DNA from: Escherichia coli
GTDB lineage: Bacteria; Pseudomonadota; Gammaproteobacteria; Enterobacterales; Enterobacteriaceae
Assembly: GCF_045037415.1 (NCBI RefSeq)
Contig: NZ_CP173438.1
Strand: one strand, 5' to 3'
Length of the DNA: 64,000 nt
Positions 2,565 to 36,151 of the stretch are shown one piece after another. Under the pieces are notes generated by a model that was not told where the DNA came from, ran no database searches, and saw only the letters and a list, made by a program, of their open reading frames with translations. Made by a program: the position numbers and the translations under genes. Numbering within the stretch: position 1 is the first letter of the stretch; each line of letters starts with the position of its first letter.

Positions 2565-3803
2565 ATGGCTGACACTCGCCCTGAACGTCGCTTTACGCGC
2601 ATTGATCGTCTCCCGCCCTACGTTTTTAACATTACCGCTGAACTGAAAATGGCTGCGCGTCGGCGCGGCGAAGATATTATCGATTTCAGTATGGGTAACC
2701 CGGACGGTGCGACTCCGCCGCATATCGTCGAAAAATTATGTACGGTGGCCCAGCGCCCGGACACGCATGGTTACTCCACTTCACGCGGCATTCCGCGGTT
2801 ACGTCGCGCCATTTCCCGCTGGTATCAGGATCGCTACGACGTTGAAATCGACCCGGAATCAGAAGCCATCGTCACTATTGGTTCGAAAGAGGGGCTGGCG
2901 CACCTGATGCTGGCGACGCTGGATCATGGTGACACAGTGCTGGTGCCGAATCCAAGCTACCCCATTCATATTTACGGCGCGGTGATTGCCGGGGCGCAGG
3001 TACGCTCAGTGCCGCTGGTGGAAGGTGTCGACTTCTTCAATGAACTGGAGCGCGCCATTCGTGAAAGTTATCCGAAACCGAAGATGATGATCCTCGGCTT
3101 CCCGTCAAACCCAACCGCGCAATGCGTGGAACTGGAATTCTTTGAGAAGGTTGTGGCGCTGGCTAAACGCTACGATGTGCTGGTGGTCCACGACCTGGCC
3201 TATGCCGATATCGTCTACGATGGCTGGAAAGCGCCGTCAATCATGCAGGTGCCGGGCGCACGCGACGTGGCGGTCGAGTTCTTTACGCTGTCGAAAAGCT
3301 ACAACATGGCGGGCTGGCGTATCGGCTTTATGGTCGGTAACAAAACGCTGGTCAGCGCGTTGGCACGTATTAAAAGCTATCACGATTACGGCACCTTTAC
3401 GCCGTTGCAGGTGGCGGCTATTGCGGCGCTGGAGGGCGATCAACAGTGCGTGCGCGATATTGCCGAACAGTACAAACGCCGCCGCGATGTGCTGGTGAAA
3501 GGGCTGCATGAAGCGGGCTGGATGGTCGAAATGCCTAAGGCTTCGATGTATGTCTGGGCGAAAATCCCGGAACCGTATGCTGCCATGGGCTCGCTGGAAT
3601 TTGCCAAGAAATTGCTTAACGAAGCGAAGGTCTGTGTCTCTCCAGGGATTGGCTTTGGCGACTACGGCGACACGCATGTGCGCTTTGCACTGATTGAAAA
3701 CCGCGACCGTATTCGTCAGGCGATTCGTGGGATTAAAGCGATGTTCCGTGCCGACGGTTTACTACCCGCCAGCAGCAAACATATTCACGAAAACGCGGAA
3801 TAA
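2565..3803 (+). CDS. alaC: Glutamate-pyruvate aminotransferase AlaC (412 aa)
   Basis: ORF 412 aa [21 protein letters not shown]...; aminotransferase class I pattern incl. [12 protein letters not shown]. Confidence 0.9.
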
Positions 3804-3822
3804 ACGCCTTCGCCAGAAATGC

Positions 3823-3851
3823 AAACAGGAGCCTAATGGCTCCTGTTTTTC
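3823..3851. terminator. Rho-independent hairpin between convergent alaC and ypdK
   Basis: Inverted repeat AAACAGGAGCC / GGCTCCTGTTT with TAAT loop, followed by T-run. Confidence 0.6.
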
Positions 3852-3867
3852 ATTGCACAGTTTGCTT

Positions 3868-3939
3868 TTAGATCATCAGGGCAAAAGTACCGGCCCAAAC
3901 GATGACCATAAAAGAAATGCCCATAAAGAAATATTTCAC
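3868..3939 (-). CDS. ypdK: Small membrane protein YpdK (23 aa), GTG start
   Basis: Reverse complement translates to (M)KYFFMGISFMVIVWAGTFALMI*, matching YpdK from memory; not in ORF track because below its length cutoff. Confidence 0.5.
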   Translation of the reverse strand: MKYFFMGISFMVIVWAGTFALMI

Positions 3940-4295
3940 TTTACATCTCTCCGCGTAATTACTGTTACGCCTGAATGACTTCATTACACCTGATACAGTG
4001 AGTTGACACCGGGCAAAACGACCTTAAACGTCCTGTATTTTACCGTGGGCATCATCCCAGAATTCTGAGCTAAACTGCTCGAGACGGCGCTAATGTACGC
4101 CTAAAACTGAAACGAGACAAGAGGCATTTTCTTATTTACTTTTAGTAACTTACAGGTGTCTCATATCGGCGACAGTTTAATTTCTGACGGTAATAATTAG
4201 ATATTCAGCGAAGGAAAAAACCTTAAGAAAAAAAGCCATAAAAACCATGAGGTTATTATGGCTGATTTGAGGAGGGAAAGAGTGAGAGCCGTTTG

Positions 4296-5216
4296 TTAAA
4301 TGTATAACGACGATTCACCCACCGGGCGCGTTTTAAAGCGACGGTGTATCCAGAGGTACTGCTCCGGTGCGCGCATGATCTCTTTCTCGATAATCTTGTT
4401 CATATAGGCAGCGGCTTGATTTTCATCTGTCGGGTAGCCTTCCATCTCTGGGGTGATGTACAAACGATATCCGCTGTAATCCGCTTTTCTTACCATCGTT
4501 ACGGTCAACATGGCTGCGCCAGAGAGACGAGAGAGGACATAGGTGCCATTGGTTGTGGCGACATTTTCCACCGCAAAGAACGGCGCGAAGGAGCTGCCTT
4601 TACGACCATAATCCTGATCGGGAGCAAACCATACCGCTTCACCTTTCTTCAGTGCACTGACAATGCCGCGCAGATTATTTCTGCCGATCATCGCTTTGTT
4701 AGAGCGCATGCGACCACGGGTCTGGACCCATTCCATCAGCTGATTATTATGCGGGCGATAGGTGGCCATCATTGGTTGGCAAAGTCCCATCACCCGACCG
4801 CCCAGTTCCAGCGACATAAAATGGACGCCGACAACCATTACGCCGCGATTTTGCATTTGTGCGCGTTTAAGGTTATCCAGCCCTTCCACATCAAACCATT
4901 TACGTACGCGACTGTCGGGCCAGAACCACGCCATGCCGGTTTCTACCAGCGCCATGCCGAGTGAACGAAAGTTTTCGGCAATCATCTTCTCGCGCTCTTC
5001 CGCAGAATGCTGCGGGAAACAAAGTTCCAGGTTTTTACGGGCGATAGATTCACGACGTTTCAGGAATGGTCGCGCCATTGTGCCGATACGCGTGCCGAGA
5101 AAGCAGAGAACAGGATAAGGAAGCTGTACCCAAAGCCAGAGTACACCAAGCCCAAACCACGTGAGCCAGTAGCGAGGATGCAGAAACTCGCGGGAAAATT
5201 TGCATTTTGGAAACAT
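4296..5216 (-). CDS. lpxP: Lipid A palmitoleoyl acyltransferase LpxP (306 aa)
   Basis: ORF 328 aa; trimmed to internal Met giving MFPKCKFSREFLHPRYWLTWFG..., the LpxP/LpxL-family N-terminus. Confidence 0.85.
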   Translation of the reverse strand: MFPKCKFSREFLHPRYWLTWFGLGVLWLWVQLPYPVLCFLGTRIGTMARPFLKRRESIARKNLELCFPQHSAEEREKMIAENFRSLGMALVETGMAWFWPDSRVRKWFDVEGLDNLKRAQMQNRGVMVVGVHFMSLELGGRVMGLCQPMMATYRPHNNQLMEWVQTRGRMRSNKAMIGRNNLRGIVSALKKGEAVWFAPDQDYGRKGSSFAPFFAVENVATTNGTYVLSRLSGAAMLTVTMVRKADYSGYRLYITPEMEGYPTDENQAAAYMNKIIEKEIMRAPEQYLWIHRRFKTRPVGESSLYI

Positions 5217-5568
5217 AGTTACCTTCTGTAGATACGAATTGTTGTATCGCAGAAGATTCCATGTCGACAGCGGTACACTCAATTGATTAGGCCATCATGT
5301 ACGACAATGGTTCCTGTAAAGAGTGTAAAGACTAGTCAGGACATAACCACGAGGAGCATGAATGCGGTATCTGTACTTTATCACTCGCTGACTGCTTTCA
5401 GCTACTGATTATTAATCGTGCAAAGTAAATATTTTTCCGTACGTAACAGTCTTGCATTTAACATGCTGTTTTGATTGATGCTTAGCAAAAATTGCCAGAG
5501 GTTAAGGATTGTCTTACTATTAAAGTGACTGAAGTTACAGGTTTTTTAGCGCGGCAGGAGGTTGAGCT

Positions 5569-5811
5569 ATGATTTATTTATGGATGTTTCTCGCCCTGTG
5601 TATTGTCTGCGTAAGCGGATACATCGGTCAGGTACTGAACATGGTATCGGCGATCTCTTCTTTCTTCGGCATGGTGATCCTCGCTGCACTCATTTATTAC
5701 TTCACCATGTGGTTAACTGGCGGTAATGAACTGGTGACGGGGATATTTATGTTTCTTGCCCCGGCTTGTGGCTTGATGATTCGCTTTATGGTGGGGTATG
5801 GCAGGCGATAG
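5569..5811 (+). CDS. yfdY: Inner-membrane protein YfdY (80 aa)
   Basis: ORF MIYLWMFLALCIVCVSGYIGQ..., two predicted TM helices; matches YfdY. Confidence 0.8.
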   Translation: MIYLWMFLALCIVCVSGYIGQVLNMVSAISSFFGMVILAALIYYFTMWLTGGNELVTGIFMFLAPACGLMIRFMVGYGRR

Positions 5812-5887
5812 TGGGTCAGGATGGCTCATTTGGGCAGGTGTTCACATCAGCATCAGACATGATTGTTCACCTGCCAGGTGACAGACG

Positions 5888-6163
5888 CTATCGCAAAGGA
5901 TGAATGAGATAATTCGCCTTTGTCGGATAAGTAGGCGTGATGTCTTCTGTGAGGTTTAATGGTGGTGCATCTTCTCTCATCTTAAACAAAATCGCCTGTG
6001 ATGGCTGAAGTTTTGTAGAATGCGTTGTCGTCATCACTGACGTTTTTTCTGTCTCTTTATAGCTCGCCTCACTACCACCACCAGAAATAGAAAATGCAAA
6101 AACATTGCATGCCATAATAGAGACAAATAAAAATAAGCTAAAAAGCATTAAGTTTACTTTCAT
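5888..6163 (-). CDS. ypdI: Small putative lipoprotein YpdI (91 aa)
   Basis: ORF MKVNLMLFSLFLFVSIMACNVFA..., signal peptide with lipobox-like Cys. Confidence 0.75.
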   Translation of the reverse strand: MKVNLMLFSLFLFVSIMACNVFAFSISGGGSEASYKETEKTSVMTTTHSTKLQPSQAILFKMREDAPPLNLTEDITPTYPTKANYLIHPLR

Positions 6164-8905: not shown

Positions 8906-10600
8906 ATGTCAGATCAACTTCAAATGACAGATGGTATGCATATCATCGTTGAAGCATTAAAACAGAATAATATTGACACTATTTATGGTGTTGTAGGTAT
9001 TCCTGTGACGGATATGGCGCGCCATGCCCAGGCGGAAGGCATTCGTTATATTGGTTTTCGTCATGAGCAGTCGGCAGGTTATGCCGCTGCAGCAAGCGGT
9101 TTTCTTACCCAAAAACCAGGGATCTGCCTGACAGTGTCTGCGCCAGGATTCCTCAACGGTTTGACCGCATTGGCCAATGCAACGGTAAATGGTTTTCCGA
9201 TGATCATGATTAGCGGCTCCAGCGACCGCGCGATCGTCGATCTCCAGCAAGGTGATTATGAAGAGCTGGACCAAATGAATGCGGCAAAACCGTATGCCAA
9301 AGCAGCATTTCGCGTTAATCAGCCGCAGGATCTTGGCATTGCATTGGCACGCGCTATCCGGGTCTCAGTATCGGGTCGTCCTGGCGGTGTTTATCTTGAT
9401 TTGCCAGCAAATGTCCTGGCCGCGACGATGGAAAAAGACGAAGCGTTAACCACGATTGTTAAAGTTGAAAATCCGTCGCCAGCATTATTGCCATGCCCGA
9501 AGTCAGTCACTAGCGCAATTTCGCTTTTAGCAAAAGCTGAACGACCATTAATTATTCTTGGCAAAGGCGCGGCGTATTCACAATCTGATGAACAGCTTCG
9601 TGAATTTATTGAAAGTGCCCAGATTCCATTCCTGCCAATGTCTATGGCGAAAGGGATCCTCGAAGATACGCATCCACTCTCTGCGGCAGCTGCGCGTTCG
9701 TTTGCCCTGGCAAATGCTGACGTTGTCATGCTTGTTGGTGCACGACTGAATTGGTTACTGGCACACGGTAAAAAAGGATGGGCGGCAGATACACAGTTTA
9801 TTCAACTGGATATTGAACCGCAGGAAATTGACAGCAACCGCCCCATTGCTGTGCCAGTCGTTGGCGATATTGCATCCAGTATGCAAGGTATGCTGGCAGA
9901 ATTGAAACAAAACACATTTACGACTCCACTGGTGTGGCGTGATATTTTAAATATCCACAAGCAGCAAAATGCACAAAAAATGCATGAAAAGTTAAGTACA
10001 GATACCCAACCATTAAATTACTTTAATGCATTGAGTGCCGTGCGCGATGTTTTGCGCGAGAACCAGGATATTTATTTAGTTAATGAAGGGGCAAATACCC
10101 TGGATAATGCACGAAATATTATTGATATGTATAAACCACGTCGTCGTCTGGATTGTGGCACTTGGGGTGTCATGGGCATCGGTATGGGCTATGCCATCGG
10201 TGCTAGCGTGACCTCTGGTTCTCCGGTTGTCGCTATTGAAGGTGATAGTGCTTTTGGTTTCAGTGGGATGGAGATTGAAACGATTTGTCGATATAACCTG
10301 CCGGTGACGATCGTTATTTTTAATAATGGCGGCATCTACAGAGGAGACGGTGTTGACCTCAGCGGCGCTGGTGCACCATCGCCAACGGATCTGTTGCACC
10401 ATGCAAGGTATGACAAATTAATGGATGCGTTTCGTGGCGTTGGCTATAACGTCACCACGACAGATGAACTTCGTCATGCTTTAACCACCGGAATTCAGTC
10501 GCGCAAACCGACCATTATTAATGTGGTCATCGACCCAGCAGCAGGAACTGAAAGTGGCCATATTACCAAACTTAACCCAAAACAAGTCGCTGGTAATTAA
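8906..10600 (+). CDS. oxc: Oxalyl-CoA decarboxylase Oxc (564 aa), ThDP-dependent
   Basis: ORF 564 aa MSDQLQMTDGMHIIVEALKQNNIDTIYGVVGIPV...; ThDP-enzyme pattern. Confidence 0.9.
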   Translation: MSDQLQMTDGMHIIVEALKQNNIDTIYGVVGIPVTDMARHAQAEGIRYIGFRHEQSAGYAAAASGFLTQKPGICLTVSAPGFLNGLTALANATVNGFPMIMISGSSDRAIVDLQQGDYEELDQMNAAKPYAKAAFRVNQPQDLGIALARAIRVSVSGRPGGVYLDLPANVLAATMEKDEALTTIVKVENPSPALLPCPKSVTSAISLLAKAERPLIILGKGAAYSQSDEQLREFIESAQIPFLPMSMAKGILEDTHPLSAAAARSFALANADVVMLVGARLNWLLAHGKKGWAADTQFIQLDIEPQEIDSNRPIAVPVVGDIASSMQGMLAELKQNTFTTPLVWRDILNIHKQQNAQKMHEKLSTDTQPLNYFNALSAVRDVLRENQDIYLVNEGANTLDNARNIIDMYKPRRRLDCGTWGVMGIGMGYAIGASVTSGSPVVAIEGDSAFGFSGMEIETICRYNLPVTIVIFNNGGIYRGDGVDLSGAGAPSPTDLLHHARYDKLMDAFRGVGYNVTTTDELRHALTTGIQSRKPTIINVVIDPAAGTESGHITKLNPKQVAGN

Positions 10601-25528: not shown

Positions 25529-25771
25529 GTGAAGGACATAGCCATGAGCTTATTGCCTCGGGAAAACGCACCCCAAAAAAGATATAGACTTCTGAGAATA
25601 TCAGAAGTGATTAATTTGACTGGCTTACCCAAGTCAACAATTTATCTAAAGATAAAGAATGATGAATTTCCGAACCAAGTTTCTATCGGTTCTCGTTCTG
25701 TTGCATGGGTGGAGCATGAAGTTAATGAATGGATAGAGAAGAATATTCTCAATAGAAAATTAAACTCCTAA
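25529..25771 (+). CDS. AlpA-family phage transcriptional regulator (HTH); true start may be the internal Met at 25544
   Basis: ORF 80 aa with YRLLRISEVINLTGLPKSTIYLKIKNDEFPNQVSIGSRSVAWVEHEVNEWI, the AlpA/MerR-like HTH pattern. Confidence 0.75.
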   Translation: MKDIAMSLLPRENAPQKRYRLLRISEVINLTGLPKSTIYLKIKNDEFPNQVSIGSRSVAWVEHEVNEWIEKNILNRKLNS

Positions 25772-25788
25772 ATTGAGGTGGCAAATAT

Positions 25789-26649
25789 ATGGTTGACAAT
25801 GTTTTTAAGAAGAAATTGGCATCAATTAAGAACGAACATGTGTCGGTGTTAGATAGTTACAAAGTAAGATCATTTAAAGAGACTCATAGCGACACGGCCT
25901 GTATTGTGCGTATTATTGAAATATATTCACTGAATAAGCTGCGAGCTAAAGGTGAAAAGCTGTATTCACTTACGGGGTTAACAGTACCTGATACGGAAAC
26001 TGTGGCGAATGAGATCAACCTGCTCCTGAGCCGTTATGCCCAGTTGTGTCGTCAGGAAGAGGAAGAGTTATCTTTCCGGCAGCGTGAAGTGACAAATGCG
26101 GAAGTTGCATGGAAAAGCACATTCTCAAAAAACGGCGTCAGTAGCATTGCTGAAGCCAAAACGAATAAAATGGGGCATGCTGAACGAGCGGATGCTGAAC
26201 GGTATTACCATCTGGCTGTTTCCCGGTTGAATGAACAACATAGTCGATTGAGCACGATCAAGCTTTTGCCGGGAGTACTGGCCGATGAAGGAAACTACAT
26301 TGGGAAGGGAATCGATAAGCGTTTACTGAATATATTTCCTCAATCCGGCCAGATCCCTGCTGATTTTATTTCTGTATTTAATGACAGTGACGTTGTCCGT
26401 GATATTAAATTTATTACTGATGCACTCAAGTCTTTATCTGATTCCGTGAGTGAAATTATTAGTCGTTGTAGCGTTCCAACTGATCGTTATGTATTAAATA
26501 ACGGTGGAATGGCAAGAGCTATGGCTTACAGGGAGTACTATCGAGCAGATAATTATGTATTACGTTCAGTCGTAAGTGACCGGGATTATGTTGAGCATGT
26601 AATGAAATACAATCTGGTTACTGAGTACAAAAATAAAATCTTTTCTTAA
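25789..26649 (+). CDS. Hypothetical protein (286 aa) directly upstream of capsid-like gene; possible scaffold or capsid-remodelling protein
   Basis: ORF track only; consistent coding frame; function assigned by position, not by motif. Confidence 0.5.
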   Translation: MVDNVFKKKLASIKNEHVSVLDSYKVRSFKETHSDTACIVRIIEIYSLNKLRAKGEKLYSLTGLTVPDTETVANEINLLLSRYAQLCRQEEEELSFRQREVTNAEVAWKSTFSKNGVSSIAEAKTNKMGHAERADAERYYHLAVSRLNEQHSRLSTIKLLPGVLADEGNYIGKGIDKRLLNIFPQSGQIPADFISVFNDSDVVRDIKFITDALKSLSDSVSEIISRCSVPTDRYVLNNGGMARAMAYREYYRADNYVLRSVVSDRDYVEHVMKYNLVTEYKNKIFS

Positions 26650-26671
26650 ATACTTAAAAAGGTGAAAAACT

Positions 26672-27676
26672 ATGTATGCCTTCAAAACTGAAAGGCCGGA
26701 CGCAGCACGTCGTTATCATAATAAATTCGTCACTGGCACTAACTATCAGGAAGAATCAAACAGACGCTTTGCATTAAGCGAACCTACTGAAAATATACTG
26801 CGTACCTCAATTCTGGAATCCGGGTGGCTTATTAAAAATATTACCCTACGTGATGTTAACGCCGTGTCAGGTAATGCCGTCAATATTGGTGCCAGTGAAC
26901 TGTATACCGGACGTGTGGATGGTGGCCGTTTCCACAAAAAAATGGCAATCAATGGTACGGAGTTCTTTCTGACAGAGACGGATACCTGCGCCCGGATCAG
27001 CTATTCCGATATGTCTCATATTTACCATACCGGCGTGCCGGATGAGTTTGAGAAAACGGTTGAGAGCTTTTTTGCCCAGGCATATGCGCTGGACATGCTG
27101 CGGGTCGGTTTCAACGGTGTGTCGATTGCAAATACTACAAACCCGGAAATCAATAAAAAAGGCGAGGATGTCAATATTGGCTGGCATGCACTGGCGAAAG
27201 CCTACGGGAACGGAAAGCAAATCATCTCTGAGCCTGTCACTCTGGGAGAGACTGGCACCTGGAAAAATATTGATGCTCTGGCCAACCATCTGATTACAGA
27301 GCTTATTGCTGAGCAGTTTCGTGAAGATCCTCGTCTGGTTGTACTGGTTGGGGCAGAGCTGGCAGCACATCAACGCCTGAAGTTATTTAATGCCGCAGAC
27401 CGCCCGTCTGATGTGAATGCGGCACAGATGGCTACAAGTTCTGTTGCTGGCCGCTTTGCGTTTATTCCCCCGTTTATGCCGGGTAAGCGTCTGGCAGTAA
27501 CGACGCTGGATAATCTGCATATTTACACTCAGGCGATAACACGCTGGTTTCGTGCTGAGTTTGATGATGAAAGCAGTGAATACGTGCATTCCTACCTGCG
27601 CAATGAAGGTTATGCACTCGGTGAACCTGAACTGTACGCGGCTGTTGATGAGTGCACCCTGACGTTTGCGGATTGA
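26672..27676 (+). CDS. P2-GpN-like major capsid protein homolog (334 aa)
   Basis: Blocks FALSEPTENILRTSILES..., MLRVGFNGV...NIGW..., DALANHLITELIAEQFREDPRLVVLVGAEL and TLDNLHIYT align by eye with my recollection of P2 GpN; needs profile confirmation. Confidence 0.45.
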   Translation: MYAFKTERPDAARRYHNKFVTGTNYQEESNRRFALSEPTENILRTSILESGWLIKNITLRDVNAVSGNAVNIGASELYTGRVDGGRFHKKMAINGTEFFLTETDTCARISYSDMSHIYHTGVPDEFEKTVESFFAQAYALDMLRVGFNGVSIANTTNPEINKKGEDVNIGWHALAKAYGNGKQIISEPVTLGETGTWKNIDALANHLITELIAEQFREDPRLVVLVGAELAAHQRLKLFNAADRPSDVNAAQMATSSVAGRFAFIPPFMPGKRLAVTTLDNLHIYTQAITRWFRAEFDDESSEYVHSYLRNEGYALGEPELYAAVDECTLTFAD

Positions 27677-27905
27677 CTTAGCGACAGAAAGACCCGCTCA
27701 GAGGCGGGTTCGTTTACAGCATCAGGAAAAATGAAGAACTATTTTTAAGCAGAGGCTTAAGCATGCCAGCGTTAATTAATCCAGGCAATGATCAGTTTTC
27801 GGTTATAAATTTCTTGCCTCACCAGGAATGCGCGGGATATAGTTTAAAGGTTGCCGCAAAATCGGCAGCCGGGCGTAGGAACCCGTGTTATCTGAAGGCG
27901 ATACT

Positions 27906-27929
27906 ACACGCGCTAGGCGTGTTTTTTTG
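27906..27929 (+). terminator. Rho-independent terminator inside the apparent non-coding leader upstream of the primase operon
   Basis: ACACGC-GCTAG-GCGTGT hairpin followed by TTTTTTT. Confidence 0.55.
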
Positions 27930-28149
27930 TGTCGCAGCTTTGACTCACCTAAAATTTATGGTGTGGTGGCTGATTGTATTTTTTTATTTTTTACGCCACA
28001 TCATCAGAATTATGGTAGTCCAGGCGGGGCAGCTTTCGGGCTGGCCGGTATCCTTCAGAGCCGGTATTCCTACCCCCGTCTGGGCTACCACCCATGAGCG
28101 TAGGAACTCCGGTGGTAGCGTTACCCGCTATCTGAAGGAGGTTGCCATT

Positions 28150-28353
28150 ATGGCTACAGTCCCTGCTTTATCTCACCCTGAATTTACCTTTGTCTTTCTG
28201 GCTGTCCGCCGTACAGACCGTGATGCCCGTCCACGCCCTGTGCGTGTAATCGCAGAATGCGAGCATGCTGCACGCCTTAAACTTGCCACTGAATTTATCC
28301 TGAGCTTTGCTGCCCGTATCCCTGTGAAAAGAGCCGGGGAGGTGGTTGCATGA
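28150..28353 (+). CDS. Small hypothetical protein (67 aa), first gene of a translationally coupled operon
   Basis: ATG at 28150 preceded by GAAGGAGG; stop overlaps next start (ATGA); the 196-aa ORF-track call 27763-28353 is treated as spurious upstream of this Met. Confidence 0.4.
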   Translation: MATVPALSHPEFTFVFLAVRRTDRDARPRPVRVIAECEHAARLKLATEFILSFAARIPVKRAGEVVA

Positions 28354-28586
28354 AATCCATGAATTTTAAGCAAGGCTGCATATTGAGTGAACAGGGGGAG
28401 AGTCGTCTGTTACGGGCGGCACTGGCCAGTGAGTTTCTTGCAGAGGTCTTGTCCGTGCCCACAGTGAATGGAGCGAGAACTGTTTCAGCGGAAGGCGCTG
28501 CGGCTTTAGTGGCCTGTATTGCCGAACAACTGGATGGCGTTGTTAAGGAAACCAGCACAATTAAGGGAGTGATGCGCGATGAATAA
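28350..28586 (+). CDS. Small hypothetical protein (78 aa)
   Basis: ORF track; start overlaps upstream stop and end overlaps next ORF. Confidence 0.45.
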   Translation: MKSMNFKQGCILSEQGESRLLRAALASEFLAEVLSVPTVNGARTVSAEGAAALVACIAEQLDGVVKETSTIKGVMRDE

Positions 28587-28989
28587 TAATCAAAATTTAA
28601 AGGCGCATGCTTTACGAACAGCAGTCTTACGCTACTACATTGCTGATGCATTCATTTCCTTAATGGTGCGTGTTCATAATGAACCTGTTTATATTGAAGA
28701 TGGCGAACGAATAGAACTCTCCCACGAAAAAGTGGTGAGTAATATTATTTACCATATTGAAATGCCGTGGGTGAATGAGTTTGGGGCTGATGCTGGTTGC
28801 ATACTGGCCGCAGAGAAACTGGAAAAAATGCTTAAACCAGGCTTTATGTCAGAAAATATTCGCCTGTCAGTTTTTGGTGTCACAGAGATGCGTGAGGTTT
28901 ACCGGGATATTATTTTCGGAGCACCTGATGGCGAACTACCCGAAGGTTTTGAATTTGTGAAGCCGGAAGGTCAGGAGGTGCTGCTGTGA
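28579..28989 (+). CDS. Hypothetical protein (136 aa) immediately upstream of primase
   Basis: ORF track; 4-nt overlap with primase start suggests coupling. Confidence 0.5.
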   Translation: MNNNQNLKAHALRTAVLRYYIADAFISLMVRVHNEPVYIEDGERIELSHEKVVSNIIYHIEMPWVNEFGADAGCILAAEKLEKMLKPGFMSENIRLSVFGVTEMREVYRDIIFGAPDGELPEGFEFVKPEGQEVLL

Positions 28990-31673
28990 AAACACCGTCT
29001 GTATCCACGATTTCCGGAGCTGCAATTGGGCGCTGGCCTTATATCCTGTCAGCATTAGGTATTAAAGTACCGTCCGCAGGACATCATGGGGCTTGCCCTG
29101 CCTGTGGTGGAAAAGATCGTTTTCGACTGGACGATAAAGCGGGGCGAGGGACGTGGTTTTGTAATCAGTGCGGTCATGGCGATGGTCTTGATCTGGTTCG
29201 TCTGGTGACAGGAAGAAAGATAAAAGAAGTCGCCGGGATGGTATCTGAGGCGCTTGCATTACCAGAAATACAGGAGAAGCCCGCATTGCCAGCCAGGAAA
29301 AAGGCCGCAGGAAAAGAAGCGGGCGCGGAGCGATATACCAGACTCAGACAGCAGTCCTGCAATGGTGAGCCGGTCTATCTGACAAATAAGAGCTTACACG
29401 GGTATTCACTTCCCTTGCTGTCACAGCCTTTGAATCTGGCCGGAATAACATTTTCCACCGGTTCATTACTGCTGCCTTTGACGGATATTTCCGGGAATAT
29501 TACTGGTGGCCAGCTTATCAATCCTGACGGGGATAAAAGTCTGCTGCCCGGTAGCCAGCTGTCTGGCGCATTCATTGCCCTGACCGATATACCCGCTGAA
29601 ACACCTGAACAGGTGATTATCACTGAGGGTTTTGCCACGGCGCTTACCGTCAGTCTGCTGACTGAAGGATGGATCGTGGCGGCTGTCGCTGCCACCAATT
29701 TACTGAAGGTGACGGAGCAGATCCGAAAACGCTGGCCGGAAACCCGGATCATTCTGGCCGGAGATAATGATCTGGCTGACGGCAAAGAAAACACCGGGCG
29801 TATTCAGGCAGAGAAAGCCGCCAAAGCGGTGGATGGCTGGGTAACGCTCCCTCCGGTACGCCATAAGGCTGACTGGGATGATTATCGGCAGGAAGTGGGG
29901 AAAGAACGGGCGAGAGATGCCTTTCGTGAAGAAATGACGCTGCATGGCAAAGGGCAGACCCGTTTACCAGAAGGGTTCCGGCTGACAAAAGAATATTTGT
30001 GGTACGACAAGCTGGTTAATAAGTCTGATGGTGATACAGAGATACGTAATATCAAAATTTGCAGTCCGTTGCGGGTGACGGCAATCACCAGTGATGCTGA
30101 TGGAAGTAATTACGGGCGTTTGCTGGAATGGGAAGATACCAACGGAAACAGCCGTAAATGGGCAATGCCGATGGAGATGCTGGGCGGTAGCGGGGAAGAA
30201 CTGCGCCGCGTTCTGCTGGTTAACGGGCTTTCTTACATCAACATTAACGGCATGGCCAGAGCATTCCTGATGGAATATATCTCGCTGTGTAAACCGGACA
30301 GAAAAGTAACCTGTGTGAATAAAACTGGCTGGCACGGCGGGGTTTACGTTCTCCAGGATGAAGTGATAGGGCGCGAAGCCCAGTCAGTCATCTTACAAAC
30401 ATCGAGTGTGCAGGGGCGTGATTTTCGTGTCAGCGGCACATCAGAGGGCTGGCGTGAAAATATAGGCCGTTATTGCATAAAGAATGCCCGTCTTGCCTTT
30501 GCGGTGAGTCTGGCATTTGCTGCCCCCCTTCTGAAACTGGTTGGTATCGGCGGTGGAGGTTATCACCTCAAAGGGGAATCCACAGACGGTAAAACCACGA
30601 CGATGAAAGTGGCTGCATCAGTATGTGGTGGAACAGATTTCTGGCATACGTGGCGGGCGACGGGGAATGCCTTAGAAGGAACGGCGAGCCGCCGCAATGA
30701 TGCCACGCTGATGCTGGATGAAATCCGGGAGGTTGACGGCAGGGAGGCGGGAAATATCGCTTATATGCTGGCTAACGGGCAGGGCAAAGCCAGAGCCAGA
30801 ACAGATGGTTCGGTAAGGGAAACCAACCGCTGGAATCTGTTGTTTCTGTCTACCGGGGAACTGTCACTGGTAGAGCATGCGGCAAGCGCCGGGGAACGTA
30901 CGTATGCCGGGGTTGAGGTCAGAATGATCCAGATCCCAAGCGATTCGGGCAAGTATGGCGTGTTTGAAGAACTTCATGGCTTCAGTAGCGGGAAAACCCT
31001 GGCTGAGCATCTTGAGCAGCACGTAGCGCATTATCATGGTGCACCATTCCGCGACTGGCTGTATTGCCTGACCGCTGATCTGCCGGAACTGACCAGTCAG
31101 GCGAAAGCCTTATTGAAAGAGTATACCCGAAGGCTGACGCCGGAAAATGCCGGGAATCAGGTTGGCCGGGCTGTTACCCGTTTTGCTCTGGTTGCGATGG
31201 CCGGGGAGCTGGCCACAAAAGCGGGCATCACAGGATGGCCGGAGGGAGAGGCCTTTCGTGCCGCTCAAAGCTGTCTGGCTGCATGGATGGCTGACCGGGG
31301 CCATACAGCTAATCAGGAAGATAAAGCGGCACTTGAACAGGTTCGGGACTTCATGACGCGTAATCAGTTCAGTCGGTTTGCTGACTGGAATGACGACAGG
31401 AACCGGCCTGTTTCAATGATGGGATTCAGAAAAGTCGATAAAGGAGACAACGTGACAGAGCCGGTTGTGACGTTCTACGTTCTCCCGTCAGGCTGGAAGG
31501 AGATCTGTAAGGGATTTGACTCGCGTAAGGTGGCCAGGTTGTGTGTGGACGCGGGCTGGCTGAAACCCGGTGAAGATGGCCGGACGCAAAACAGCATTCG
31601 CCTGCCAGAAATAGGGCTTAAACGTGTGTACCAGTTCAATACACAGGTACTGGGAAGCGCTGAACCTGAGTGA
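28986..31673 (+). CDS. P4-alpha-like zinc-binding primase-helicase (895 aa)
   Basis: N-terminal CPACGG...FCNQCGHGDG zinc-finger pair; Walker A GESTDGKTT; overall satellite replication-protein architecture. Confidence 0.8.
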   Translation: MKTPSVSTISGAAIGRWPYILSALGIKVPSAGHHGACPACGGKDRFRLDDKAGRGTWFCNQCGHGDGLDLVRLVTGRKIKEVAGMVSEALALPEIQEKPALPARKKAAGKEAGAERYTRLRQQSCNGEPVYLTNKSLHGYSLPLLSQPLNLAGITFSTGSLLLPLTDISGNITGGQLINPDGDKSLLPGSQLSGAFIALTDIPAETPEQVIITEGFATALTVSLLTEGWIVAAVAATNLLKVTEQIRKRWPETRIILAGDNDLADGKENTGRIQAEKAAKAVDGWVTLPPVRHKADWDDYRQEVGKERARDAFREEMTLHGKGQTRLPEGFRLTKEYLWYDKLVNKSDGDTEIRNIKICSPLRVTAITSDADGSNYGRLLEWEDTNGNSRKWAMPMEMLGGSGEELRRVLLVNGLSYININGMARAFLMEYISLCKPDRKVTCVNKTGWHGGVYVLQDEVIGREAQSVILQTSSVQGRDFRVSGTSEGWRENIGRYCIKNARLAFAVSLAFAAPLLKLVGIGGGGYHLKGESTDGKTTTMKVAASVCGGTDFWHTWRATGNALEGTASRRNDATLMLDEIREVDGREAGNIAYMLANGQGKARARTDGSVRETNRWNLLFLSTGELSLVEHAASAGERTYAGVEVRMIQIPSDSGKYGVFEELHGFSSGKTLAEHLEQHVAHYHGAPFRDWLYCLTADLPELTSQAKALLKEYTRRLTPENAGNQVGRAVTRFALVAMAGELATKAGITGWPEGEAFRAAQSCLAAWMADRGHTANQEDKAALEQVRDFMTRNQFSRFADWNDDRNRPVSMMGFRKVDKGDNVTEPVVTFYVLPSGWKEICKGFDSRKVARLCVDAGWLKPGEDGRTQNSIRLPEIGLKRVYQFNTQVLGSAEPE

Positions 31674-31699
31674 TTATCGCGTGAGTCTTATTTTTATGA

Positions 31700-31888
31700 G
31701 GTAACACTGGTAACAGAGGTAACACCCGTTACTGATGCGGTTCTTCAGTGTTACCAGTCAAAAATACTGACTGGTAACAGAGGTAACAAAAAATGGTGTG
31801 TTACCACGCGTTACCTCTTGATTTTGCTAACTGGTAACAGATTAAATCCTTTTAAATCAATAGCGTTACACGTGTTACCAGTGTTACA
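31700..31888. promoter_or_regulatory. Iteron cluster, candidate origin of replication of the element
   Basis: At least 12 copies of GGTAACA / TGTTAC(C/A) in both orientations within ~190 bp just 3' of the primase gene. Confidence 0.55.
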
Positions 31889-31955
31889 CGTTCAGAACAA
31901 GAGGTAGGGATCCAAATCCCTTCTTCTGGCGGGCAACAGTATAGGGCACAGAACG

Positions 31956-32228
31956 ATGAAGATGATGAGAATGTACTGCCCCACATGTCAGGCAGTAGCA
32001 CGGATAGGTAAAACAAACAGGAAACACCCACAACTGTACGATGTGTACTGCTATTGCTCTAATGTGGAGTGCGGTCACTCGTTTGTGATGAATGTTGCTT
32101 TCTCCCATTCCGTTAGTCCAAGCGCGCTGAACGGGCAGGGAAGGGTTAAAGAGCTGATTGATGCAATTCCACCCGAGGAACGGGAAAAGGCTTTAAAGTT
32201 GCTGCTGGCTGCGCAAAAGAATGGGTAA
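31956..32228 (+). CDS. Ogr/Delta-family zinc-finger late-gene activator-like protein (about 87-90 aa)
   Basis: ORF MKMMRMYCPTCQAVARIGKTNRKHPQLYDVYCYCSNVECGHSF...; C-x2-C ... C-x4-C spacing typical of Ogr/Delta. Confidence 0.65.
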   Translation: MKMMRMYCPTCQAVARIGKTNRKHPQLYDVYCYCSNVECGHSFVMNVAFSHSVSPSALNGQGRVKELIDAIPPEEREKALKLLLAAQKNG

Positions 32229-32907
32229 AGTATGCGTCGGGAATGGCCGATCTGTTCCCGGAACCTGAACACAGGATTTCAGTTTATACGGTCATAAAAT
32301 TATTATTTTTCAACTGGTTATCTTCTTCATGTTTCACAAACCTTCATAAAATCACACACCTAAAATTAATTATCCATTTAATATCATAGAGTTGCGTATT
32401 CAGGCCATAGATTCGACGGACAGTAAAACTGAAAAAAAATGAATTTCTTTTCATTCTTTTCAGTTCCTGTATCGCAGTACATCTCGAGGACTGGCACGGA
32501 CTGGCGGTATCGTTTGTAAAAAATCCAGGCTGAAAATTTTTAGTGATATGAAAACCGCAGGCGGGTGCGGTGTAGTGCCGTTTTGGTCTGTCGAGCGTAT
32601 ATTTTCCTTTTTCACGATTGCTGCATATCAAAACGAATGTGCAGATATCAGGCCGTGTCAAACCGTGAATCGTGGAGCCTAAATGCCCAAACTACGTTTG
32701 TAGACCTAGCTAGGGGAAGGTTTCCACATATACTGCTACCTATCTTCCAGTCGCTGGTGAGGATCAAGGTAAGCTAACTGGTGAACAAGAAAAGTACTTT
32801 CGTATCTTGCGTACTCGTTTTTTTTGATTAGTATGTACAGGTAGTAACTGGATGGTGAGAATTCGTCATAACTTATCAAATTGCATGATGTTTATAGAGT
32901 ATGAGTA

Positions 32908-33789
32908 ATGAGTCATAATAAAAAGGAATATGCTAAATTTTTCCGTCGCCCCATTTTTTCATCCTTAGCAAAAGGTAAGGATATTTCGGATTTATTTGGG
33001 AGTTTTGATTCTTACTGCTATGAAACACTGTTTTCAAACAATGATAATAATGAACATGAGATTTCACTAAGGGATTTATTTACATCATTATATGATTTTT
33101 TGCGTCTGAATTATAGAAATGAATATGTTTATAAGACAGCACTTGTCAATAAAATAATATTCGGTAAGCACAGCCCAAAAACAAGTTCGTCGTCCATAGA
33201 GTTACCAATTAAAAACTCTATAGTGGATGTTGCGGTGTTTAATGGTACGTCTACAGCTTACGAGATTAAGACAGAGTATGATTCACCAAAAAGGTTGATT
33301 ACTCAAGCCCCTGATTATTTGGATGTTTTTGATAAAGTGTATATAGTTACACATCCAGAGTATGCAAGTAAATATTGTGCTTTAAATCTCCCCAGAGTGG
33401 GAGTTATGGTTTTGAATAAAAAAGATCAATTGAGTGTCATTAAGGAGGCAGATTCAAATATTGATTATATTAAAAGTGACAGCTTGTTTTCAGTTCTTAG
33501 AAAGGAAGAGTTCTTAGCTATAATAGAAGATTACACTTCAACTAAAATAAATATGCCTAACGGATTGGTTTATGAATATTGTAAAGAGATATTCATGCAG
33601 ATGCCATTAAACATAGCAAATAAATACTTTATCTCTGCTATGAAAAAAAGATGTAACGATAAAGTTTTTTTGGATTATATTTATTCTCTTCCAGCATGTT
33701 TACGTGTTTTAGGTTATGCAACACCATTATCAAGAAAGCAAAAAGAATTCATCATGAATTTGATGGATGTAAAAATTAAAATTTGTTGA
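32908..33789 (+). CDS. Hypothetical protein A (293 aa), AT-rich cargo gene with PD-(D/E)xK-like motif
   Basis: ORF track; IVDVAVFNGTSTAYEIKTE (D107 ... E119-x-K121) resembles a restriction-endonuclease-fold catalytic core; strong AT bias unlike flanking DNA. Confidence 0.6.
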   Translation: MSHNKKEYAKFFRRPIFSSLAKGKDISDLFGSFDSYCYETLFSNNDNNEHEISLRDLFTSLYDFLRLNYRNEYVYKTALVNKIIFGKHSPKTSSSSIELPIKNSIVDVAVFNGTSTAYEIKTEYDSPKRLITQAPDYLDVFDKVYIVTHPEYASKYCALNLPRVGVMVLNKKDQLSVIKEADSNIDYIKSDSLFSVLRKEEFLAIIEDYTSTKINMPNGLVYEYCKEIFMQMPLNIANKYFISAMKKRCNDKVFLDYIYSLPACLRVLGYATPLSRKQKEFIMNLMDVKIKIC

Positions 33790-33810
33790 TATCCTCAGGA
33801 GTTGTAAGTT

Positions 33811-34761
33811 ATGTATAGCCCATATTTGTATGCGAGAAGTACAGAGTTATTATGCCTTAGGGACCTCGTTGCGAAGGGAGTTAGCCTAAATGGTCTGCTA
33901 CCAATTTTAGAACCAATTAACGTCAATACGAGAAATTTATTAACATGTTTAAATGTTTGGAATTCTGACATAATTGTTATCCTTAATCCTTATCAGGAAG
34001 ATTTTTCTTCACACAATAACGTCTTAACTTTAAATCAAAATTTATCAAGTGTATTAACAAATAAAAATAATATCATCTCTGGATATCTTATTCAGCCCAA
34101 TACAACGATTAATGATATTAATAATTGGTTGAATGCTAACTTAAATAGACGAGTTGCACTTCTATATGATAATCCATCATTATCCAACTCTGATATTCAG
34201 TTGTTGGCGACAAATCAATTGATTAGTTATCATGTTGTTTTAAATAATAAAATGCTTCCTAATCAGTGCGCTCTTCTTCCTTTGTCGAAGTTAATTATTA
34301 TTAGCGATAACTTTAGAAAGTTAGCAAAAAATGCTGATTATAATGGGCCGGAACTTTTCACGCACGCACATCAATTCGTGGGACAAAATTACTTAGGATT
34401 TGGCGATTATACAATTACTGGCCAGGTACTAGATCTTGGAGGTGGTCAACCTTCTGCTGTTGCCGCACATTTGGTGTTCAAGAATTTACAAGCGAATACA
34501 GTTTGGATTCGTCATTTTGTATCAAGCAACACGCAACGAGGAAGTTCAAATGTTACTGCAAAATTTTTAGATGTTTCAGATCAAATTACAAATCTTGTTC
34601 CCCAACATCCAACCCAGTTTGGCAGCAACATTGGTCTTAACTATTATTATTACAATAGTCAACCAACTGTAAGGCATTTCCCTGGGTTGCCAAAAAACAA
34701 ACAGTATCAAATTACTCACCATATTTGTTTCATGCTGGATTTAATAGCAGGTCGTATTTAA
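33811..34761 (+). CDS. Hypothetical protein B (316 aa), AT-rich cargo gene, Asn/Ser/Leu-rich, no motif I can assign
   Basis: ORF track; AGGAG Shine-Dalgarno 8 nt upstream; 21-bp gap from gene A; 3' end overlaps integrase 3' end convergently. Confidence 0.6.
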   Translation: MYSPYLYARSTELLCLRDLVAKGVSLNGLLPILEPINVNTRNLLTCLNVWNSDIIVILNPYQEDFSSHNNVLTLNQNLSSVLTNKNNIISGYLIQPNTTINDINNWLNANLNRRVALLYDNPSLSNSDIQLLATNQLISYHVVLNNKMLPNQCALLPLSKLIIISDNFRKLAKNADYNGPELFTHAHQFVGQNYLGFGDYTITGQVLDLGGGQPSAVAAHLVFKNLQANTVWIRHFVSSNTQRGSSNVTAKFLDVSDQITNLVPQHPTQFGSNIGLNYYYYNSQPTVRHFPGLPKNKQYQITHHICFMLDLIAGRI

Positions 34762-35916
34762 TAAGCTAGCGTACCATTCCATCATTACTTGTCGATCTTT
34801 AATATATTGCGCATGATTGTAAGTACCTCGAATAGAGTTCTTATCAACATGCGCAAGCTGCATTTCAATCCAGGCACTTTCAAACCCATGCTCATGCAAG
34901 ATGGTGCTCATGGTATGCCTGAAACCGTGACCCGTTAACCGACCGTGATAACCCAGTAGTTTTATCACTTTGTTGATGCTGGCTTCGCTCATTGGTTTAC
35001 TGACGTCATTCCGGCCAGGGAAAACGAGGCTGTAATTCCCTGTTATTTCTTGCAGCTTTTTCAGGATATTGATCGCCTGAGTTGATAACGGAACCAGATG
35101 GGGGCGGCGTTTCTTCATCCGTTCTTTGGGGATCTCCCATAAGGCATTATCTAAATCAAACTCAGCCCATTCCGCTGCACGTAGTTCAATTGTTCGCACG
35201 CCTGTTAGCATCAACAGCTGCGTGGCGTATTTGGTAACTAAACTGCCCTGATAGTTATCCAGAGCATTAACGAACTCGGGCAACTCGCTTTCAGTCAGGA
35301 ACGGGAAGTGTTGGGTTTTAGGTTTGTTGAGTGCGATAGCTAAATCGGGTGCAAAATTATACTTTGCTCTACCAGTGGCAACAGCATAACGAAGCACTTC
35401 ACCACAGCGGCGGCGGATCTTACTGGTTTGCTCTAGCGCACCTCTTTTCTCTATTTTTTGCAGGACGGTTAGCAGTTCTAATGGTTCAATCTGCTCAATT
35501 GGGCGCTGGCCGATAAAAGGAAAAATATCCTTTTCCATACAATTGAGAACCTCTTTTGCATAACCCTCTGACCAGGTGGCTTTTTTCGATGAGTGCCATT
35601 CTCTGGCCACAGACTCAAAGCTGTTCTCATGCGCGAACTGCAAAGCAATCTTATCTGCTTTTCTGGCTTCACTTGGGTTTATCCCGTTGGCTAACATCGA
35701 ACGCGCTTCATCACGTTTGGTACGTGCCTGTGCCAACGACACATCGCCATATACGCCAAAGGAAATCATCTTAGGCTTACCTGCAAAGCGATAGCGAAAA
35801 CGCCAGCCTTTACTGCCCGCTGTGTCGATCAGGAGTGATAGCCCCATACCATCGTTAAGCGTATAGGGTTTGTCCTTCGGTTTTGCTCTTTTTATTTGGA
35901 TGTCAGATAGCAGCAT
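34741..35916 (-). CDS. P4-family tyrosine integrase (391 aa)
   Basis: ORF 407 aa trimmed to MLLSDIQIKRAKPKDKPYTLNDGMGLSLL...; C-terminal HxxR ... Y catalytic pattern; adjacent to tRNA. Confidence 0.85.
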   Translation of the reverse strand: MLLSDIQIKRAKPKDKPYTLNDGMGLSLLIDTAGSKGWRFRYRFAGKPKMISFGVYGDVSLAQARTKRDEARSMLANGINPSEARKADKIALQFAHENSFESVAREWHSSKKATWSEGYAKEVLNCMEKDIFPFIGQRPIEQIEPLELLTVLQKIEKRGALEQTSKIRRRCGEVLRYAVATGRAKYNFAPDLAIALNKPKTQHFPFLTESELPEFVNALDNYQGSLVTKYATQLLMLTGVRTIELRAAEWAEFDLDNALWEIPKERMKKRRPHLVPLSTQAINILKKLQEITGNYSLVFPGRNDVSKPMSEASINKVIKLLGYHGRLTGHGFRHTMSTILHEHGFESAWIEMQLAHVDKNSIRGTYNHAQYIKDRQVMMEWYASLLNTTCY

Positions 35917-36075: not shown

Positions 36076-36095
36076 ATGGTGTCCCCTGCAGGAAT
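36076..36095. repeat. tRNA-proximal attachment-site repeat (overlaps argW 3' end)
   Basis: ATGGTGTCCCCTGCAGGAAT, identical to 24261-24280. Confidence 0.8.
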
Positions 36096-36151
36096 CGAAC
36101 CTGCAATTAGCCCTTAGGAGGGGCTCGTTATATCCATTTAACTAAGAGGAC
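36077..36151 (-). tRNA. argW: tRNA-Arg (anticodon CCU)
   Basis: Reverse complement reads GTCCTCTTAGTTAAATGGATATAACGAGCCCCTCCTAAGGGCTAATTGCAGGTTCGATTCCTGCAGGGGACACCA; cloverleaf with CCU anticodon and T-arm GGTTCGATTCC. Confidence 0.9.

Follow-up and report, generated by a model that had tools for sequence, protein, structure and literature searches.

A two-gene sce7726/sce7725 cassette beside the integrase of a P4-related Escherichia coli island: a candidate anti-phage module of the wider gop-β-cII family

The anti-phage system of P4 that goes by the name Rst_gop_beta_cII in DefenseFinder and gop_beta_cll in PADLOC is the closest described relative of the locus considered here, a cassette of two genes lying between an ogr/Delta-like gene and a P4-family integrase in a stretch of 64,000 nucleotides (the window) from the Escherichia coli contig NZ_CP173438.1. 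Gene A (positions 32908-33789, + strand) encodes a protein of 293 aa and gene B (33811-34761, + strand) one of 316 aa. The P4 system, gop-β-cII, is a named and experimentally validated system that protects against λ and P1, and it is proposed to work by abortive infection with gop as the toxin (PMC9122126). Its killing is triggered by the phage accessory gene orf184 (bioRxiv 10.1101/2023.04.06.535777). A β-like protein is also found in a second system, PD-λ-2, where PD-λ-2C is needed for defence and not for toxin neutralisation (PMC9519451).

A sequence-only reading of this DNA, made without database searches, had taken the cassette for a defence or abortive-infection system that it could not match to a named one. 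This part of the reading does not hold, as protein A falls in the P4 cII family, protein B appears to be a remote homologue of β, and gop-β-cII is a validated system. On its sequence the cassette belongs to the catalogued sce7725/sce7726 pair, which is functionally unstudied, and it is most likely a two-gene, gop-less variant in the wider family of gop-β-cII and not something wholly undescribed. On balance the segment at ~32590-34771 is probably a self-contained two-gene anti-phage module of the cII/β superfamily.

Two protein families and their pairing

Protein A is an sce7726 protein in NCBIfam (NF033832, 175.6 bits against a cut-off of 70), a model that P4 cII also matches above its cut-off with 151 bits. 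It matches the PADLOC model cll (E 1.2e-18) and is 39% identical to P4 cII over the catalytic core (E 9e-11), phrog_984 holds both proteins, and homologues of protein A carry PF26915 (Phage_P4_cII), a recent Pfam family. In a family alignment of 33 sequences, P4 cII included, the residues D107, E119, K121, D125, R129 and Q133 are invariant and E98 and Y137 nearly so, giving the motif D...ExK followed by QxxxY (Q133-x3-Y137). The predicted fold is a restriction-endonuclease-like PD-(D/E)xK core of the αβββαβ type, with a helical extension of ~68 aa on its N-terminal side and a helical domain on its C-terminal side. The sequence-only reading had picked out such a core with D107, E119 and K121, and both the invariance of these residues and the predicted fold agree with it. 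Motif, conservation across the family and predicted fold all speak for protein A being a PD-(D/E)xK nuclease, and P4 cII itself has been grouped with the MmcB-like/PDDEXK families (Rousset Table S3).

Protein B is an sce7725 protein (NF033831, 242.2 bits, cut-off 60), so that the likeness to sce7725 and the pairing with sce7726, both suggested by the sequence-only reading, were correct. The searches with hidden Markov models (HMMs) that had been called for at the same time succeeded with NCBIfam and with PADLOC cll, whilst Pfam-A and PADLOC returned nothing for protein B, for which no PADLOC model matches even at E 1. Neither protein A nor protein B had a significant match in Pfam-A (a release predating PF26915), and PDB sequence searches with the sce7726 and sce7725 family profiles gave chance-level matches only. 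All 50 matches listed in a Foldseek search of AFDB50 with protein B are sce7725 or differently named close relatives, and the best 150 matches of a deep sce7725 profile search are full-length proteins of ~270-330 aa that align over nearly the whole profile.

Structure prediction gives a confident TIM-barrel ((β/α)8-type) model for protein B. The polar residues E12, E34, N59, D199, H220, H235, K297 and H304 are invariant, D176 and H303 are nearly so, and most of this polar set maps to predicted β-strands or to the positions directly following them. In TIM barrels catalysis usually takes place at the strand ends, thus protein B looks like an enzyme with a conserved pocket. With this richer set of invariant catalytic-type residues it could be argued that the killing is done by protein B, for example through depletion or conversion of an essential metabolite, and that protein A is a sensor of DNA ends or structure or an inactive scaffold; β-type barrels recur with gop and cII, with a HigBA-peptidase or with cII alone, and may be the constant active core. 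Such a reversal of roles is improbable, however, as protein A lacks none of the catalytic residues of an active PD-(D/E)xK/RecB-like nuclease, QxxxY included, and PD-λ-2 has its own toxin, with its β-like protein being an accessory.

The relation of protein B to P4 β is seen when families are compared. An hhalign comparison of 38 sce7725 with 31 β sequences gives a probability of 87.9% (E 3.2e-6, 247 columns), and broader profiles of 208 and 118 sequences give 93.1% (E 3.3e-7), with the same broader profiles reaching only 0.1-0.2% against the unrelated cII family as a control. Invariant residues co-align, with Y2, P4, R9, E12, P31 and G198-D199 of sce7725 falling on Y10, P12, R17, E20, P37 and G240-D241 of β. 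When each sce7725 member was scanned against Pfam, no family but Beta_protein (PF14350) came up for more than one of them, with sub-threshold matches in 3 of 38. It is concluded from these comparisons, with which the genomic context described next agrees, that the sce7725 proteins are remote homologues of P4 β and would be its functional counterparts.

The two families are found side by side well beyond E. coli. In a sample of sce7725 loci that includes 21 returned by a profile search, a cII-family gene directly adjoins the sce7725 gene in all 24 intact loci (Proteobacteria, Acidobacteria and Actinobacteria), and the same adjacency is present on a gut-virome contig. In 22 loci both genes point the same way and the cII-type gene comes first, and one lineage has the convergent arrangement of P4. 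No recurrent third gene, including a small upstream gene, was found across 25 sce7725 loci, and a Listeria-associated contig with sce7725 has no partner detectable by the proteobacterial cII HMM. The β homologues of Pseudomonas, Methylibium and Acinetobacter keep the P4 order of a small open reading frame (ORF), β and a convergent cII gene (PF26915), and two of these small ORFs show a recognisable likeness to gop. Nucleases of the cII family are met in two combinations, as cII with gop and β and as sce7726 with sce7725. In Pseudomonas aeruginosa a gop-like gene, β and convergent cII (L007/L008) lie between Pf-like filamentous prophage genes (DUF2523, Phage_Coat_B, DUF5447) and a HigB/helix-turn-helix (HTH) pair, so the P4-type system also travels on a mobile element of quite another kind.

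The sce7725 family comprises 1,496 clusters at 50% identity (E <= 0.001) from Proteobacteria, Acidobacteria, Actinobacteria, Firmicutes, Bacteroidota and Spirochaetes. Within E. coli the pair is carried by 421 of 5,426 complete genomes (~8%), ST131 strains included, with at least 99% identity, and is annotated in RefSeq as sce7725/sce7726. A protein of this type is indeed made, as mass spectrometry of clinical E. coli picked up a member of the sce7725 family (PMC8203672). Many draft assemblies break inside genes A and B, leaving numerous 'partial' proteins on contigs of ~8 kb.

Two independent IS1 insertions each disrupt one of the two genes in viable isolates, one strain for each gene. In strain THO-015 (cassette at L039, 2404-4131) an IS1 splits gene B at about codon 143 and leaves gene A identical to the wild type, and in strain FXCREC145 (cassette at L040, 1501-3181) one truncates gene A at about codon 268 with gene B intact. 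The first of these bears on a restriction-modification-like system, in which protein B, as a TIM-barrel enzyme, would label self DNA or a nucleotide pool (for instance by TGT/DpdA-type base exchange) and protein A a restriction nuclease acting on unmarked incoming DNA. The viability of a strain with B destroyed and A intact is unexpected if B shields self DNA, TGT-type matches of protein B are no better than those to generic barrels (TrpA, pyruvate kinase, citrate-lyase-like), no cofactor or precursor genes lie beside the pair, and the related β branch employs a membrane toxin and shows the behaviour of abortive infection or programmed cell death, all of which make a system of this kind unlikely.

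Both insertions bear on a classical toxin-antitoxin or addiction module that stabilises the island, with A the toxic nuclease and B the antitoxin or the reverse. The tight linkage of the genes on a mobile element beside its integrase would suit such a module, as would the description of β as neutralising gop toxicity in P4 (Ghisotti 1990, as cited in PMC9122126). With one strain per case, the viable knock-outs tend to speak against one partner simply depending on the other as in a toxin-antitoxin pair, and in PD-λ-2 the β-like PD-λ-2C does not serve as the antitoxin. The slot in which the pair lies swaps with bona fide defence systems and not with toxin-antitoxin modules, and an addiction module is quite improbable.

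The slot beside the integrase and its island

The outline of the cassette given by the sequence-only reading is borne out by the ORF list and the sequence. The two genes share a strand with an intergenic gap of 21 bp, and an AGGAG ribosome-binding site of gene B lies at 33797-33801 (+ strand), 9 nt 5' of its ATG. Gene B (stop 34759-34761) reaches 21 bp into the convergent ORF of the integrase (stop 34741-34743), which is the overlap that had been noticed. The G+C content, judged earlier by eye at about one-third, was computed as 0.306 for gene A, 0.340 for gene B and 0.324 for the cassette against 0.479 for the island backbone, and the G+C at third codon positions is ~0.27 in the cassette compared with 0.53 in the primase gene. 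The view of the cassette as horizontally acquired, AT-rich cargo is supported.

The neighbours are also those that had been proposed. To the left is the ogr/Delta-like zinc-finger gene (31956-32228, + strand; ORF list, RefSeq) and to the right the P4-family tyrosine integrase (34741-35916, - strand), which aligns with P4 Int along its full length at 40% identity (E 1e-100). The flanks of the slot were found in ~440-450 complete E. coli genomes, ~420 of which are near-identical. Three sister islands (L013-L015) occupy the same argW site with a backbone 90-93% identical up to ~32586-32589 and then carry other cargo: an AAA ATPase with DUF4435, that is PARIS, in L013, SLATT with a reverse transcriptase in L014 and a Shedu nuclease in L015. 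The integrase-proximal slot is a defence hotspot, as the sequence-only reading had supposed of this region from what is reported for P4-like satellites.

Homology of the backbone ends at ~32586-32589, just past a G+C-rich hairpin (32554-32581) that is terminator-like on both strands and stands directly before the left recombination junction, and it restarts at ~34772-34800 inside the integrase gene, which places the exchanged module at ~32590-34771. The DNA upstream of gene A (32590-32907, + strand) is specific to the cassette, is exchanged along with genes A and B, and presumably holds the native promoter. The right junction is inside the integrase coding sequence, with the last ~10 integrase codons (34741-34771) travelling with each cargo. 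All the cargoes examined (sce7725, AriB of PARIS, the reverse transcriptase and a Morganella sce7725) overlap the 3' end of the integrase gene convergently by ~20-26 bp, the coordinates being 34741-34800 in the window, 9288-9309 in L013, 8949-8968 in L014 and 6919-6945 in L016. Some islands of this type are in decay with their defence cargo still intact, as there are internal stops in the L013 primase gene (3287-5974) and the L014 integrase gene (8949-10124), and L015 is rearranged by IS3.

The context of the pair elsewhere is of the same nature. Other sce7725 loci adjoin Hachiman and a type I restriction-modification system, Thoeris ThsB, or Lamassu LmuB and PDC-S25, and in six genera a P4-type integrase gene stands convergently behind the pair, as in the present island. 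A function in the life cycle of a satellite, such as the control of lysogeny, might instead be considered for genes that sit beside int in a P4-related element. The name cII (clear-plaque) was taken from a plaque phenotype in P4 and suggests such a role there. Against this, chromosomal defence islands of Acidobacteria, Actinobacteria and Burkholderiales contain the pair with no satellite genes nearby, and the sister islands manage without it when carrying PARIS, a reverse transcriptase or Shedu, thus a life-cycle function is very improbable.

The backbone of the island (25543-32589, + strand, from the RefSeq annotation of an identical island) runs from an HTH regulator through a hypothetical gene, a P2-family major capsid gene, an Icd-like gene with C4 and isrK RNAs, two small ORFs and a DUF927 primase to the ogr/Delta-like gene, and the integration site is the tRNA-Arg(CCT) gene argW (36077-36151, - strand). 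The N-terminus of the primase is 38% identical to P4 α. Both isrK (27850-27927, + strand, Rfam 68.9 bits) and the C4 antisense RNA (28008-28095, + strand, Rfam 81.1 bits) lie within or beside the Icd-like gene and make up a P4-type RNA immunity region, with ~80% DNA identity to P4 8285-8707. With a P4-type integrase, an α-type primase, an ogr/Delta activator and a C4 immunity RNA all found in the island, its status as a satellite is plausible on gene content. Neither psu nor sid is in the island annotation, and a search for a P2/P4 cos site found nothing that resembles the P4 cos region or, at <=5 mismatches, the 19-nt cohesive end. A search for the far att repeat gave nothing convincing, so the left end of the island is taken from the annotation only.

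Three further features of the backbone are of note. The P2 family phage major capsid gene (26671-27675, + strand) occurs without annotated sid or psu or a detectable cos, a gene set unusual for a P4-related element, which suggests that a helper phage may be exploited in another manner. The interval between the primase and ogr/Delta-like genes has repeats at 31706-31841, with ACTGGTAACAGAGGTAACA present in two exact copies 64 bp apart and a 32-nt pair GTTACC...GGTAACAGA, which could be iterons or activator-binding sites. The third is a conserved non-coding stretch of ~360 bp (32229-32589) 3' of ogr, which ends in the hairpin at the cargo junction and occupies the position of psu and cos in P4.

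A proposed mode of action

What we infer for the pair, that is its anti-phage activity, the roles of sensor and killer, the trigger and the substrate, may be put together as follows. Protein B would sense a phage cue or product, probably by means of its enzymatic pocket, and would then license protein A to cut DNA. Protein A would attack the phage DNA, or the phage and host DNA together and so bring about abortive infection. Protein A is likely to be the effector, its intact predicted nuclease site being the only obvious killing activity in the pair. The recurrence of β-type barrels with different effectors fits a role for protein B as a sensor or switch, as does the need for PD-λ-2C in defence but not in neutralising the toxin of that system. 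This specific model, of a sensor that acts on a nuclease, is held with lower confidence than the reading of the cassette as a defence module.

A number of observations weigh against these proposals. The putative killer in P4, gop, is absent from the cassette, thus the assignment of protein A as effector can not be transferred from P4. The barrel of protein B found no specific superfamily match in the fold comparison. Its kinship with P4 β is remote; BLASTP between the two is not significant even though the N-termini align, protein B matches neither Pfam Beta_protein nor the PADLOC beta model, and the strongest match between the sce7725 and β profiles covers only the N-terminal ~118 columns. 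A promoter scan of 32590-32907 gave no strong site on the + strand. Furthermore, the element is nearly clonal across its E. coli carriers, so that its persistence there says little about selection, and a literature search found no functional study of sce7725/sce7726 and none that treats the pair as a defence system.

If the cassette is active it would be a compact defence system, widespread yet overlooked by present annotation tools, and it would offer a simpler, two-protein entry to the mechanism of the three-gene gop-β-cII. The P4 system would itself be recast, with barrel and nuclease as the conserved core and gop as an add-on. A broader and distinctly tentative idea, which may well not hold, is that the β/sce7725 TIM barrels are widespread, unrecognised enzymatic phage sensors or switches with interchangeable effectors (the cII nuclease alone, the nuclease with gop, or HigBA-peptidase), in which case sce7725-sce7726 would be the minimal core and the chemistry would be new to bacterial immunity.

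Comparison with known systems

The nearest relatives of protein A by fold, the MmcB-like/RecB-like PD-(D/E)xK nucleases (PF06319; PDB 3dnx, SPO1766), share only 13% sequence identity with it, and protein A differs from them in its extra N- and C-terminal helical domains and its obligate TIM-barrel partner. PD-λ-2 (Vassallo et al. 2022) is related to the cassette through its β-family protein PD-λ-2C, as P4 β matches the PADLOC PD-Lambda-2_C models, and the role of PD-λ-2C in defence but not in neutralisation is the one proposed for protein B. The partners in PD-λ-2 are, however, a HigB-like protein and a HigA-peptidase fusion and not a cII-type nuclease, and protein B itself does not match the PD-Lambda-2_C models.

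With gop-β-cII the cassette shares the nuclease family, in which cII, sce7726, PF26915 and phrog_984 are one and the same, a partner remotely homologous to β, and a place beside a P4-family integrase in a hotspot of the P4 type; the convergent layout of β and cII is kept by one sce7725 lineage. Unlike gop-β-cII, the cassette has no gop, a toxin with two transmembrane segments, and no ORF in window positions 24000-37000 matches gop even at E 10. Its genes are co-oriented from nuclease to barrel, whereas in P4 gop and β are followed by a convergent cII. Protein A has the additional N-terminal helical extension compared with P4 cII, protein B falls outside the Pfam, PADLOC and PHROG families of β (phrog_34524 as opposed to phrog_9159), and the cassette escapes the PADLOC v2 models that recognise gop-β-cII. 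Of the three components by which gop-β-cII is recognised in sequence only cII was found, with gop and a family-level β both lacking, and therefore the cassette should not be filed as gop-β-cII.

The setting can likewise be compared with the P4 psu-int hotspot (Rousset et al. 2022). The present island differs in having no annotated psu or sid and no detectable P2/P4 cos, and in its P2-family major capsid gene, its argW site and the position of the slot between the ogr/Delta-like gene and int. Common to both is an exchangeable cargo beside a P4-family integrase, with PARIS, reverse transcriptase-type and other systems in sister elements, and the island at argW is a second type of P4-related island, one in which the slot beside the integrase acts as the published P4 hotspot does.

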